Origin: Eledone cirrhosa
Taxonomy: Eukaryota
NCBI GenBank assembly: GCA_964016885.1
Contig: OZ024740.1
Coordinates: 376,402,001-376,466,000 of the forward strand
Length of the DNA stretch: 64,000 nt
Direction: 5' to 3'
The position numbers and the translations under genes were made by a program. Below the pieces are notes generated by a model that was given only the letters and a program-made list of their open reading frames with translations, made no database searches and was not told where the DNA came from. Of this stretch, positions 46,444 to 55,061 are shown one piece after another. Position 1 is the first letter of the stretch. Each line of letters begins with the position of its first letter.

Positions 46444-49400
46444 CAATTAAGTTAAAGATGTACATCCATATATGTATACTGAAATACTAGTATGTATATG
46501 AATACACACACGTATATATATGTAGATGTACCAAGTTTTTTCACTGGTCACTTTACTGTGAGTGGCCAGCTATTCTGTATATAAACACACAGACAAACCG
46601 GTTTTTAGAGTCATACTGGTTTTTGAGGAAACACCTTTCCTCTATTCTCTAGAAAGCCAGACAAGGAATATTGAACTAGTTTCGTTGTTGTTACAACTCA
46701 TCAGCAATATTTACCTATCTTCCGGCCTCTCTAGAGAATCGTAAAAGCACATATCGTTATATGCTTTTTGTATGAAAATTAGTAGTGGGCATACTAATTT
46801 GCATAGAGTGTGAGTAAGTACCGGTTCAACGGAGACGATAAAAACAAATAACGAAACGAAATTAAATTTTGTTTCATTTGTAACTCACTTTTGTATGACT
46901 GACGCTTAAACAATTAAGTTAAAGATGTACATCCATATATGTATACTGAAATACTAGTATGTATATGAATACACACACGTATACATATGTAGATGTACCA
47001 AGTTTTTTCACTGGTCACTTTACTGTGAGTGGCCAGCTATTCTGTATATAAACACACAGACAAACCGGTTTTTAGAGTCATACTGGTTTTTGAGGAAACA
47101 CCTTTCCTCTATTCTCTAGAAAGCCAGACAAGGAATATTGAACTAGTTTCGTTGTTGTTACAACTCATCAGCAATATTTACCTATCTTCCGGCCTCTCTA
47201 GAGAATCGTAAAAGCACATATCGTTATATGCTTTTTGTATGAAAATTAGTAGTGGGCATACTAATTTGCATAGAGTGTGAGTAAGTACCGGTTCAACGGA
47301 GACGATAAAAACAAATAACGAAACGAAATTAAATTTTGTTTCATTTGTAACTCACTTTTGTATGACTGACGCTTAAACAATTAAGTTAAAGATGTACATC
47401 CATATATGTATACTGAAATACTAGTATGTATATGAATACACACACGTATACATATGTAGATGTACCAAGTTTTTTCACTGGTCACTTTACTGTGAGTGGC
47501 CAGCTATTCTGTATATAAACACACAGACAAACCGGTTTTTAGAGTCATACTGGTTTTTGAGGAAACACCTTTCCTCTATTCTCTAGAAAGCCAGACAAGG
47601 AATATTGAACTAGTTTCGTTGTTGTTACAACTCATCAGCAATATTTACCTATCTTCCGGCCTCTCTAGAGAATCGTAAAAGCACATATCGTTATATGCTT
47701 TTTGTATGAAAATTAGTAGTGGGCATACTAATTTGCATAGAGTGTGAGTAAGTACCGGTTCAACGGAGACGATAAAAACAAATAACGAAACGAAATTAAA
47801 TTTTGTTTCATTTGTAACTCACTTTTGTATGACTGACGCTTAAACAATTAAGTTAAAGATGTACATCCATATATGTATACTGAAATACTAGTATGTATAT
47901 GAATACACACACGTATACATATGTAGATGTACCAAGTTTTTTCACTGGTCACTTTACTGTGAGTGGCCAGCTATTCTGTATATAAACACACAGACAAACC
48001 GGTTTTTAGAGTCATACTGGTTTTTGAGGAAACACCTTTCCTCTATTCTCTAGAAAGCCAGACAAGGAATATTGAACTAGTTTCGTTGTTGTTACAACTC
48101 ATCAGCAATATTTACCTATCTTCCGGCCTCTCTAGAGAATCGTAAAAGCACATATCGTTATATGCTTTTTGTATGAAAATTAGTAGTGGGCATACTAATT
48201 TGCATAGAGTGTGAGTAAGTACCGGTTCAACGGAGACGATAAAAACAAATAACGAAACGAAATTAAATTTTGTTTCATTTGTAACTCACTTTTGTATGAC
48301 TGACGCTTAAACAATTAAGTTAAAGATGTACATCCATATATGTATACTGAAATACTAGTATGTATATGAATACACACACGTATACATATGTAGATGTACC
48401 AAGTTTTTTCACTGGTCACTTTACTGTGAGTGGCCAGCTATTCTGTATATAAACACACAGACAAACCGGTTTTTAGAGTCATACTGGTTTTTGAGGAAAC
48501 ACCTTTCCTCTATTCTCTAGAAAGCCAGACAAGGAATATTGAACTAGTTTCGTTGTTGTTACAACTCATCAGCAATATTTACCTATCTTCCGGCCTCTCT
48601 AGAGAATCGTAAAAGCACATATCGTTATATGCTTTTTGTATGAAAATTAGTAGTGGGCATACTAATTTGCATAGAGTGTGAGTAAGTACCGGTTCAACGG
48701 AGACGATAAAAACAAATAACGAAACGAAATTAAATTTTGTTTCATTTGTAACTCACTTTTGTATGACTGACGCTTAAACAATTAAGTTAAAGATGTACAT
48801 CCATATATGTATACTGAAATACTAGTATGTATATGAATACACACACGTATACATATGTAGATGTACCAAGTTTTTTCACTGGTCACTTTACTGTGAGTGG
48901 CCAGCTATTCTGTATATAAACACACAGACAAACCGGTTTTTAGAGTCATACTGGTTTTTGAGGAAACACCTTTCCTCTATTCTCTAGAAAGCCAGACAAG
49001 GAATATTGAACTAGTTTCGTTGTTGTTACAACTCATCAGCAATATTTACCTATCTTCCGGCCTCTCTAGAGAATCGTAAAAGCACATATCGTTATATGCT
49101 TTTTGTATGAAAATTAGTAGTGGGCATACTAATTTGCATAGAGTGTGAGTAAGTACCGGTTCAACGGAGACGATAAAAACAAATAACGAAACGAAATTAA
49201 ATTTTGTTTCATTTGTAACTCACTTTTGTATGACTGACGCTTAAACAATTAAGTTAAAGATGTACATCCATATATGTATACTGAAATACTAGTATGTATA
49301 TGAATACACACACGTATACATATGTAGATGTACCAAGTTTTTTCACTGGTCACTTTACTGTGAGTGGCCAGCTATTCTGTATATAAACACACAGACAAAC

Positions 49401-52165: not shown

Positions 52166-55061
52166 TGTACATCTTTAACTTAATTGTTTAAGCGTCAGTC
52201 ATACAAAAGTGAGTTACAAATGAAACAAAATTTAATTTCGTTTCGTTATTTGTTTTTATCGTCTCCGTTGAACCGGTACTTACTCACACTCTATGCAAAT
52301 TAGTATGCCCACTACTAATTTTCATACAAAAAGCATATAACGATATGTGCTTTTACGATTCTCTAGAGAGGCCGGAAGATAGGTAAATATTGCTGATGAG
52401 TTGTAACAACAACGAAACTAGTTCAATATTCCTTGTCTGGCTTTCTAGAGAATAGAGGAAAGGTGTTTCCTCAAAAACCAGTATGACTCTAAAAACCGGT
52501 TTGTCTGTGTGTTTATATACAGAATAGCTGGCCACTCACAGTAAAGTGACCAGTGAAAAAACTTGGTACATCTACATATGTATACGTGTGTGTATTCATA
52601 TACATACTAGTATTTCAGTATACATATATGGATGTACATCTTTAACTTAATTGTTTAAGCGTCAGTCATACAAAAGTGAGTTACAAATGAAACAAAATTT
52701 AATTTCGTTTCGTTATTTGTTTTTATCGTCTCCGTTGAACCGGTACTTACTCACACTCTATGCAAATTAGTATGCCCACTACTAATTTTCATACAAAAAG
52801 CATATAACGATATGTGCTTTTACGATTCTCTAGAGAGGCCGGAAGATAGGTAAATATTGCTGATGAGTTGTAACAACAACGAAACTAGTTCAATATTCCT
52901 TGTCTGGCTTTCTAGAGAATAGAGGAAAGGTGTTTCCTCAAAAACCAGTATGACTCTAAAAACCGGTTTGTCTGTGTGTTTATATACAGAATAGCTGGCC
53001 ACTCACAGTAAAGTGACCAGTGAAAAAACTTGGTACATCTACATATGTATACGTGTGTGTATTCATATACATACTAGTATTTCAGTATACATATATGGAT
53101 GTACATCTTTAACTTAATTGTTTAAGCGTCAGTCATACAAAAGTGAGTTACAAATGAAACAAAATTTAATTTCGTTTCGTTATTTGTTTTTATCGTCTCC
53201 GTTGAACCGGTACTTACTCACACTCTATGCAAATTAGTATGCCCACTACTAATTTTCATACAAAAAGCATATAACGATATGTGCTTTTACGATTCTCTAG
53301 AGAGGCCGGAAGATAGGTAAATATTGCTGATGAGTTGTAACAACAACGAAACTAGTTCAATATTCCTTGTCTGGCTTTCTAGAGAATAGAGGAAAGGTGT
53401 TTCCTCAAAAACCAGTATGACTCTAAAAACCGGTTTGTCTGTGTGTTTATATACAGAATAGCTGGCCACTCACAGTAAAGTGACCAGTGAAAAAACTTGG
53501 TACATCTACATATGTATACGTGTGTGTATTCATATACATACTAGTATTTCAGTATACATATATGGATGTACATCTTTAACTTAATTGTTTAAGCGTCAGT
53601 CATACAAAAGTGAGTTACAAATGAAACAAAATTTAATTTCGTTTCGTTATTTGTTTTTATCGTCTCCGTTGAACCGGTACTTACTCACACTCTATGCAAA
53701 TTAGTATGCCCACTACTAATTTTCATACAAAAAGCATATAACGATATGTGCTTTTACGATTCTCTAGAGAGGCCGGAAGATAGGTAAATATTGCTGATGA
53801 GTTGTAACAACAACGAAACTAGTTCAATATTCCTTGTCTGGCTTTCTAGAGAATAGAGGAAAGGTGTTTCCTCAAAAACCAGTATGACTCTAAAAACCGG
53901 TTTGTCTGTGTGTTTATATACAGAATAGCTGGCCACTCACAGTAAAGTGACCAGTGAAAAAACTTGGTACATCTACATATGTATACGTGTGTGTATTCAT
54001 ATACATACTAGTATTTCAGTATACATATATGGATGTACATCTTTAACTTAATTGTTTAAGCGTCAGTCATACAAAAGTGAGTTACAAATGAAACAAAATT
54101 TAATTTCGTTTCGTTATTTGTTTTTATCGTCTCCGTTGAACCGGTACTTACTCACACTCTATGCAAATTAGTATGCCCACTACTAATTTTCATACAAAAA
54201 GCATATAACGATATGTGCTTTTACGATTCTCTAGAGAGGCCGGAAGATAGGTAAATATTGCTGATGAGTTGTAACAACAACGAAACTAGTTCAATATTCC
54301 TTGTCTGGCTTTCTAGAGAATAGAGGAAAGGTGTTTCCTCAAAAACCAGTATGACTCTAAAAACCGGTTTGTCTGTGTGTTTATATACAGAATAGCTGGC
54401 CACTCACAGTAAAGTGACCAGTGAAAAAACTTGGTACATCTACATATGTATACGTGTGTGTATTCATATACATACTAGTATTTCAGTATACATATATGGA
54501 TGTACATCTTTAACTTAATTGTTTAAGCGTCAGTCATACAAAAGTGAGTTACAAATGAAACAAAATTTAATTTCGTTTCGTTATTTGTTTTTATCGTCTC
54601 CGTTGAACCGGTACTTACTCACACTCTATGCAAATTAGTATGCCCACTACTAATTTTCATACAAAAAGCATATAACGATATGTGCTTTTACGATTCTCTA
54701 GAGAGGCCGGAAGATAGGTAAATATTGCTGATGAGTTGTAACAACAACGAAACTAGTTCAATATTCCTTGTCTGGCTTTCTAGAGAATAGAGGAAAGGTG
54801 TTTCCTCAAAAACCAGTATGACTCTAAAAACCGGTTTGTCTGTGTGTTTATATACAGAATAGCTGGCCACTCACAGTAAAGTGACCAGTGAAAAAACTTG
54901 GTACATCTACATATGTATACGTGTGTGTATTCATATACATACTAGTATTTCAGTATACATATATGGATGTACATCTTTAACTTAATTGTTTAAGCGTCAG
55001 TCATACAAAAGTGAGTTACAAATGAAACAAAATTTAATTTCGTTTCGTTATTTGTTTTTAT
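52164..55061 (+). repeat. Tandem array, about 6.2 x 467 bp, inverted right arm of the same unit
   Basis: Reverse complement of the left-arm unit; junction ...TACTGT-GA-TGTACATC with 2-nt microhomology; ends in (TA)n. Confidence 0.97.
52386..52430 (+). ncRNA. Minimal type I hammerhead ribozyme; 6 copies at 52386+467n (last 54721-54765)
   Basis: Same motif on the plus strand; predicted cleavage after GUU, between 52423 and 52424. Confidence 0.92.

Follow-up and report, generated by a model that had tools for sequence, protein, structure and literature searches.

A Two-Armed Array of Hammerhead Units

The window analysed here is a 64,000-nt stretch of the Eledone cirrhosa genome (contig OZ024740.1), which carries a tandem array of 467-bp units, each with a hammerhead ribozyme motif. 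By its sequence, the array belongs to a young, dispersed family of non-LTR retrozymes (LTR, long terminal repeat), and its ends point to an insertion of the Penelope-like type. A 43-nt hammerhead stretch was matched six times on the plus strand (52390 to 54725) and 12 times on the minus strand (46665 to 51802), the spacing between hammerheads being exactly 467 bp throughout on both strands. Tandem Repeats Finder (TRF) gave copy numbers of 12.3 (46444-52165) and 6.2 (52164-55061) for the same unit. Exact pattern searching and TRF thereby reproduced the 12 minus-strand and six plus-strand hammerheads of the original prediction, which had overlooked the recurring two-armed, two-site structure of Penelope type described below. 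Compared with one reference unit, the 8.6 kb of array (18.5 units) showed a single differing base, at 46517. The earlier statement that the unit has no credible open reading frame (ORF) was confirmed on a four-fold concatemer, in which ATG-started frames reached at most 30 amino acids and stop-to-stop frames at most 60.

The two arrays form one insertion, whose arms are fused back to back at 52164-52165 with a 2-nt overlap (GA). The left arm (46444-52165, minus strand; 12.25 units with 12 hammerheads) has its inner end at unit position 113, counting the base after the hammerhead cleavage site as position 1; with the RNA-sense 3′ end pointing outward, it stops at unit position 230-231, referred to as site X. 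The right arm (52164-55061, plus strand; 6.2 units with six hammerheads) begins at unit position 208, points outward with its 3′ end as well and stops at unit position 302-303, referred to as site Y. Both arms run into (TA)n target sequence, located at 46406-46443 on the left (TRF and sequence) and at 55059-55179 on the right (TRF), the latter being common to the array and a neighbouring Penelope-like copy. Within one plus-strand unit, X, the first fixed outer end and the putative start site of a reverse transcriptase (RT), corresponds to 52652-52657 and Y, the second fixed outer end, to 52725-52726. The 72 nt from X to Y (52653-52725, plus strand), which will be referred to as the tail, contain a hairpin at about 52683-52714. 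One monomer from cleavage site to cleavage site, the predicted linear or circular RNA of 467 nt, is represented by 52424-52890 (plus strand).

An Extended Type I Hammerhead

The first plus-strand hammerhead spans 52379-52436. Outer and inner helix I surround a 3-nt bulge (52384-52386) and are followed by the core (52393-52399), by stem II (52400-52413) and, on the 3′ side, by GAAA, a 2-bp palindromic stem III and GUU, with a predicted cut at 52423/52424. A complete core with a palindromic stem III was found in each unit, so that the type I reading of the original prediction stands; its description as minimal had to be abandoned. Since stem II has 4 bp with a 6-nt loop and helix I (stem I of 6-7 bp) continues beyond the 3-nt bulge into an extra 5-bp helix, the ribozyme belongs to the canonical, extended type I hammerheads; its palindromic stem III has 2 bp, and a tertiary loop contact presumably stabilises it. 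The proposed cut after GUU was retained as a prediction, but GUU turned out to be confined to one subfamily, with GUC or GUA elsewhere. The Rfam search that had been suggested gave a mixed outcome: Hammerhead_HH9, alongside four overlapping matches from its clan, aligned over its full model length with 37.7 bits (E 9e-8) but missed its gathering score of 52, and at the gathering score no hammerhead was called in the array. Rfam matches to miRNA families lay far below their thresholds, originated from a TA-rich hairpin and were discarded.

A Large Family with a Structured Monomer

The unit was searched across the 3.0-Gb animal assembly, as had also been suggested. Scoring covered 38 of the 270 candidate places and yielded 309 matches, and near-identical arrays were found dispersed over many contigs. 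Dispersal, tandem arrangement, the absence of an ORF and one type I hammerhead per unit agree with the earlier reading as a non-LTR retrozyme. A pattern search yielded 5,114 exact GUU cores genome-wide, compared to none for reversed control patterns; the hammerhead motif in the array is not due to chance. Another 3,189 exact cores carry GUC; in most of those listed, a U-A pair of stem II is swapped to A-U. Sixty-four loci of this family, designated family A, comprise 41 with GUU and 23 with GUC. A sister family B with a 432-nt monomer and a GUA triplet accounts for 24,001 exact cores, and both families can be aligned around the whole circle, at 306 of 494 columns. In total, the genome holds more than 32,000 exact hammerhead cores of the A/B clade. 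The unit is also present in contigs of four public runs from four organisms, and the stem II swap together with GUC recurs in run X4 and in part of the contigs of run X1.

Family B copies (for example L178:1680-2501, L130:410-925, L186, L188 and L210-L229) have periods of about 420-540 nt and a U-U at the base of stem II, and several lie nested within (TA)n bordering insertions of family A. Further variants of the clade were seen, one of them with GUU. At one family A locus (L174), the arms differ at the cleavage base, with GUC in two minus units and GUG, which is not cleavable, in two plus units; two templates may have been used in one event. A pattern for other hammerheads with this palindromic stem III returned mostly A/B variants, and the eight unrelated matches that were read showed no hammerhead-bearing Penelope ends (L207 being judged from its flanks only).

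The monomer is predicted to fold with -143 kcal/mol (z -8.2 versus shuffles). A long TA/CA-rich hairpin (52566-52639, plus strand) lies directly before site X in both families, and 52482-52488 (plus strand) form the 5′ strand of a long-range helix with 52664-52670 inside the tail (alignment columns 60-66 and 251-257), in which two compensatory changes distinguish A from B. In 19 monomers of both families, six of the 12 hammerhead pairs showed two-sided changes and 94% of the cells were paired, versus 15-47% in slid controls; among the consensus pairs, 17 of 76 changed on both sides, including the long-range helix into the X-Y region, all these measures being inflated by kinship of the sequences. 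The comparison suggests that the hammerhead and the monomer structure are under selection at the RNA level. The octamer ATGCAAAT (52760-52767, plus strand) is kept in 61 of the 64 family A loci as well as in family B and may be part of an internal promoter.

Insertions with One Fixed Site per Arm

Insertion anatomy was determined for 90 loci, namely the window, 29 loci behind the 150 best matches listed and 60 loci taken in chromosome order from the first 100 matches of two pattern searches (26 of 27 GUU loci, one of more than 10 kb being left out, and 34 of 34 GUC loci). These loci contained 65 back-to-back junctions, at which a minus arm meets a plus arm, and a single adjacency of the opposite kind. 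Five junctions were cut by the fetched stretch, leaving 60 complete two-armed loci: 55 ended at X on one arm and at Y on the other, one ended at X on both (the compound locus L034), none at Y on both, and four had an off-site end. Thus, with both ends on a site, X and Y were split between the arms in 55 of 56 loci. Across loci, X spans unit positions 229-234 and Y 302-303, separated by 72 nt. An independent motif caller assigned X and Y in 52 of 52 two-ended loci. The locus in the window, with X on the left, Y on the right and a junction overlap of 2 nt, is typical of the family. Two of the sampled loci, L161 and L162, are duplicates of one event, and several loci that look one-armed retain 10-20 nt of the second end as a stub.

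The outer ends ran into (TA)n in 59 of 82 cases for X and 59 of 72 for Y; target-site duplications are unreadable there. In family B, the homologous sites are about 58 nt apart, and the 11 two-ended insertions among 39 loci comprised 10 with X and Y and one with X twice. By alignment, L216 might be a second family B locus of the latter kind; its arms derive from different subfamilies. An inverted truncated copy, a tail delimited by two sites and an AT-rich or microsatellite target, three features of Penelope-like insertions, are all found in this family.

Near-identical tandems are hard to assemble, and the 12 and six hammerheads were counted in an assembly, which raises the question of whether the inversion is genuine or was created during assembly or by long reads folding back. 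A fold-back would give a mirror image, whereas the arms in the window have unequal inner starts (unit positions 113 and 208) and do not share a fixed outer site. Moreover, the same plan is repeated at 55 loci, and loose ends running into (TA)n occur in contigs of another public run (X1), at X in four contigs and at Y in 12, at positions matching 52657 and 52726, respectively. We therefore regard an artefact as hardly credible.

In contrast to the fixed outer ends, the inner ends were distributed uniformly around the unit (n = 116; Rayleigh p about 0.42, Kolmogorov-Smirnov p 0.56), and no clustering within 10 nt of the cleavage site was observed (three versus 5.0 expected). At 41 of the 65 junctions, the arms met between a 1-nt gap and a 3-nt overlap. 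Arms exceeded one unit in 73 of 110 cases and three units in 27, the longest comprising 14.8 units. No difference in length was found between X and Y arms, and arm lengths within a locus were unrelated (rho 0.20, p 0.15). Since the inner ends are even and most arms exceed one unit, copying must have crossed the cleavage site repeatedly on a template that was covalently continuous there.

Arms That Usually Share One Monomer

Sequence homogeneity was evaluated using 280 full monomers from 64 loci. The median distance between monomers was 0 within a locus and 2 to the nearest other locus. An identical monomer was present in both arms at 16 of 20 loci, compared to 26 of 2,016 pairs of loci, and 11 of 17 dominant monomers occurred at no other sampled locus. 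No shared internal polymorphism was detected in 18 of the 25 loci with at least three monomers. Arrays consisting entirely of identical monomers included those of the window (16 of 16), L132 (18 of 18) and L059 (14 of 14). Three diagnostic bases of the window are fixed in all units of both arms, with L032 and L031 apparently forming a steplike series towards this state. A new base change that is fixed in 12-18 units must have passed through one unit, which was then multiplied. A circle multiplies one unit by itself; a linear template copied with truncation does not.

Homogeneous tandems might also be explained by short Penelope-type insertions of one or two units that were later lengthened in DNA by unequal crossing-over or slippage, a satellite-like model favoured in the discussion of 10.64898/2026.07.22.740005. 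Change at the DNA level does occur, since block duplications are visible in older arrays, with a six-unit block repeated in L175 and short repeated blocks in L146. Slow local growth would predict shared sub-variants, though, and these are missing from the 18 loci mentioned; it also fits poorly with arms that are both long, unrelated in length and identical in sequence. As the origin of the arrays, this model appears improbable.

Proposed Rolling on a Circular Template

We consider it likely that a non-LTR retrozyme, as a non-autonomous parasite of the Penelope-like type, gave rise to the array in a single retrotransposition event, through a complete chain of steps that includes rolling on an RNA circle. 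At the DNA level, the proposal is based on the dispersal, the target preference, the two-armed structure with two sites, the random inner ends, the monomer homogeneity and the covariation described above. The tandem locus would be transcribed, perhaps from an internal promoter containing the octamer. The hammerheads would then cut the transcript into 467-nt monomers, which would be ligated to circles; production, cutting and circularisation of this RNA are assumed by analogy to other animal retrozymes, for which self-cleavage and ligation have been demonstrated (PMC7229834). A Penelope-like RT-endonuclease supplied in trans, probably as a dimer, would bind the RNA and cut both strands of the (TA)n target, so that one target 3′ end could start copying at X and the other at Y. 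Each cDNA would circle the template for 0.2 to 15 turns across the ligated cleavage site. Joining of both cDNA ends at short microhomologies, followed by repair, would leave a pair of concatemers that point outward, with the 72-nt tail present on just one of the two sides. The protein that assigns X and Y to separate DNA ends and rolls would be a Penelope-like protein of this genome.

A more specific version, which we put forward tentatively and with some doubt, is that the RT-endonuclease dimer holds one RNA circle at two fixed handles, X and Y, one per DNA end, and rolls with both of its active sites. If this were true, the retrozyme would represent a minimal two-handle substrate, and Penelope-like elements would in general owe their tandems, their inverted copies and their one-sided tails to rolling on circles made by hammerheads, with one start site per DNA end.

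Several points weigh against rolling on monomer circles by such an enzyme. Seven of the 25 multi-unit loci are mosaic (L041, L057, L142, L146, L174, L175 and L177), and mosaic arrays are beyond the reach of one monomer circle. Three of them alternate in an ABAB manner (L057, L142 and L177; L057 has both types, spanning both arms), as expected from dimer circles, L041 and L146 are irregular, and L146 and L175 contain the repeated blocks already mentioned. In view of these loci, multimer templates or later DNA-level changes must also occur. Four of 20 loci lack an identical monomer common to both arms, and the monomers called private are so only among the 90 sampled loci of a far larger family. 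The covariation signal largely reflects one split, A versus B. A helper with a homologous pseudo-LTR was not found in the two Penelope-like families whose ends were compared, and the tails of these candidate helpers, about 42 and 137 nt, differ from the 72 nt of the retrozyme. Self-cleavage of the 467-nt unit is not assured either, because eight of nine frog retrozyme dimers are reported to remain uncleaved in vitro (10.64898/2026.07.22.740005). Finally, insertion in the anole system relied mainly on uncleaved RNA, hammerhead mutants were still inserted, and the start sites used by the protein in vitro did not differ between the two strands (PMC11167929), so that the strict one-site-per-end rule is so far a genomic one.

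Because of the preference reported for anole, a long uncleaved multimer could replace the circle. According to this explanation, the same enzyme starting at X and Y would copy a long uncleaved linear multimer, or monomers joined by template jumps, and circles would be by-products. A weak ribozyme would favour it: stem III has only 2 bp, and GUU is cleaved more slowly than GUC. GUU does belong to the cleavable triplets according to PMC3138052; in PMC1636495, no statement on GUU was found. The mosaic arrays L041 and L146 resemble copies of a mixed parent, and identical arms are also expected from a homogeneous parent array. Such arms do not distinguish a single RNA template from two RNAs of the same parent locus. 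Yet truncated copying of linear templates only shrinks arrays, whereas 12-18 identical monomers unseen at other sampled loci were found in single arrays. Jumps between cleaved monomers would predict inner ends at the cleavage site, and the observed inner ends lie elsewhere. The ABAB arrays, in turn, are consistent with dimer circles. On balance, a linear template seems rather unlikely as the general explanation, and rolling on circles remains the reading that we prefer.

Penelope-Like Neighbours as Candidate Helpers

Two young Penelope-like families with copies beside the array are candidates for the helper; their labels, such as Neptune-like, were assigned by inspection. The copy of candidate family 1 (55180-57260, plus strand) is 5′-truncated, of autonomous type and separate from the array. 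It contains a frame for RT and GIY-YIG endonuclease (55310-56596, plus strand) and has its own inverted arm (55180-55332). At least 100 copies of this family exist at 96-100% protein identity. Its ends lie about 42 nt apart, and one end site per arm was observed in four of four loci with both visible, 30 loci having been read. Candidate family 2 is represented by a frame at 59771-61210 (plus strand), also separate from the array, with linker cysteines that look Neptune-like. Many copies have open frames of 830 amino acids and occur as head-to-head pairs, with ends 137 nt apart and one per arm in two of two pairs with both ends visible. Across both candidate families, open frames of about 830 and 880 amino acids are available. 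Genome searches with two families returned 25,193 and 105,969 Penelope-like first-look candidates.

A hammerhead-like motif was noticed in family 1 at about 57030-57062 (plus strand) and in L061-L089, consisting of a 4-bp hairpin, GAAA and a short palindrome. Its 5′ core is non-canonical. The motif is retained in nearly all copies read and would be either a variant form of the ribozyme or a remnant kept by some other selection. In family 2 (59771-64000; L230-L234), the unit measures about 6.4 kb. Some 3.9 kb of it do not code for protein and abound in TA/TG microsatellite-like sequence that is part of the element; a clear hammerhead was not found in this family.

The original prediction had allowed for the unit being simply the pseudo-LTR of an autonomous Penelope-like element, in which case the arrays would be ORF-less by-products. 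Frog retrozymes do match pseudo-LTRs in 24 of 57 families (10.64898/2026.07.22.740005), and ends were compared for only two of the very many Penelope-like families in the genome. In that comparison, matches of the retrozyme unit to the pseudo-LTR regions of both candidate helper families were confined to TA-rich low-complexity sequence. In 280 of 280 full monomers, the unit forms a closed repeat that contains no ORF. It lacks the ORF for RT and GIY-YIG that an autonomous element would have, and a screen of 139 loci with five Penelope-like peptides from the window revealed no such frame running into the unit. This screen gave matches in 10 of the 139 loci, and the frames near the units belong to separate insertions. 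Two loci with family B behind a Neptune-like frame on the same strand (L042 and L214) were considered as possible pseudo-LTRs; they disagree with each other and were taken as separate insertions, since frame, spacer and entry point into the unit all differ. As A and B are homologous around the entire circle, the ORF-less form has its own history, and its derivation as a pseudo-LTR by-product is very improbable.

Relation to Known Elements

A link between retrozymes and Penelope-like elements was proposed in PMC7229834 (Cervera and de la Pena 2020) and argued from phylogeny in 10.64898/2026.07.22.740005 (Li et al. 2026). According to these reports, the metazoan non-LTR retrozymes of coral, mussel and axolotl are likewise ORF-less tandems of a few hundred bases with low GC content, one canonical type I hammerhead per unit, a short palindromic stem III and a strongly self-paired monomer, co-existing with Penelope-like elements, and copying of a circular template by a Penelope-like RT has already been suggested for them. 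The present family differs in sequence and in size (467 nt, with its sister at 420-432 nt and longer); RNA has been demonstrated for those retrozymes, whereas this family is known from DNA alone.

For Penelope-like elements, an inverted truncated copy, a tail of 30-40 bp often at one end only and a bias towards microsatellites are described as a signature (PMC8557442, Craig et al. 2021). A Penelope-like protein studied in vitro cleaves both target strands, extends them and initiates copying at two internal sites that delimit the tail, and a dimer is predicted (PMC11167929, Frangieh et al. 2024). As far as these accounts go, elements with an endonuclease share with the retrozyme the inverted 5′-truncated copy, the partial tandems, the one-end tail, the AT-rich or microsatellite targets, the two internal start sites and a hammerhead in the repeat. 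The retrozyme has no RT or endonuclease, its tail is 72 nt long instead of 30-40, its arms reach up to 15 whole units, and its hammerhead is extended rather than minimal. A tail at one end, "often" seen according to the published text, was found here in 55 of 56 loci with both ends on a site. MRC1 and the other non-autonomous Chlamys elements of Chlamydomonas are also non-autonomous, Penelope-like and multicopy head-to-tail (PMC8557442). Their 3′ ends are similar to those of autonomous partners, whereas a partner with a shared end was not found here, and the Chlamys group is reported there to lack canonical hammerheads, compared to one per unit in the present family.

Retrozymes as a class and their link to Penelope are thus known, and the two-armed structure with one site per end together with the monomer bottleneck would add genomic evidence on the mechanism. 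We did not find this combination described for retrozymes, although subscription journals, Repbase or supplements may hold it; a term search of the main texts of PMC7229834 and 10.64898/2026.07.22.740005 gave no mention of back-to-back arms, fixed ends, a tail or (TA)n targeting. The identity of the enzyme that mobilises animal retrozymes and the role of the circle as the real template have so far been argued from co-occurrence and pseudo-LTR likeness (PMC7229834; 10.64898/2026.07.22.740005), and the origin of tandem and inverted ends with a one-sided tail in Penelope-like elements is an open question as well (PMC8557442, PMC11167929). The insertions described here bear on both: concatemers made up purely of hammerhead units have ends of Penelope type, the arms follow the one-site-per-end rule almost without exception, and a single monomer sequence is multiplied up to 18 times. 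Since a 467-nt substrate, mapped starts and two young candidate enzymes with long frames are at hand, both questions can be tested in the published in vitro assay.

Newt satellite 2 is also a tandem hammerhead repeat with a weak palindromic stem III; the present unit is larger and of different sequence. The newt repeat is reportedly transcribed from an snRNA-type promoter with an octamer, and the octamer of the present unit is a candidate only.

Other Repeats in the Window

Between the two candidate helpers lies the 3′ end of an older Penelope-like copy (58732-59560, plus strand), with a GIY-YIG frame that stops near 59085, a decayed hammerhead near 59330-59370 and an end in (TA)n. A broken Neptune-like Penelope copy was found at 10725-12565 (minus strand), together with an inverted repeat of its 3′ region near 12683-12997.

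A ribozyme resembling that of hepatitis delta virus is located at 23366-23448 (minus strand; Rfam CPEB3 model, 55.6 bits, E 2.5e-12), directly upstream of a decayed non-LTR retrotransposon with endonuclease and RT on the same strand (frames 21025-23053), and is probably the 5′-processing ribozyme of that element. A second decayed non-LTR retrotransposon (36235-41149, plus strand) retains an ORF1-like frame, an endonuclease-like frame and RT fragments. The repeat at 25755-26135 may resemble the short interspersed nuclear elements of octopus. Beyond the window, at least five other hammerhead types were noticed in the flanks of loci that had been read (L034:588, L037, L038, L040, L043, L044, L058, L065, L132, L146 and L171), the genome being very rich in ribozyme-bearing repeats.

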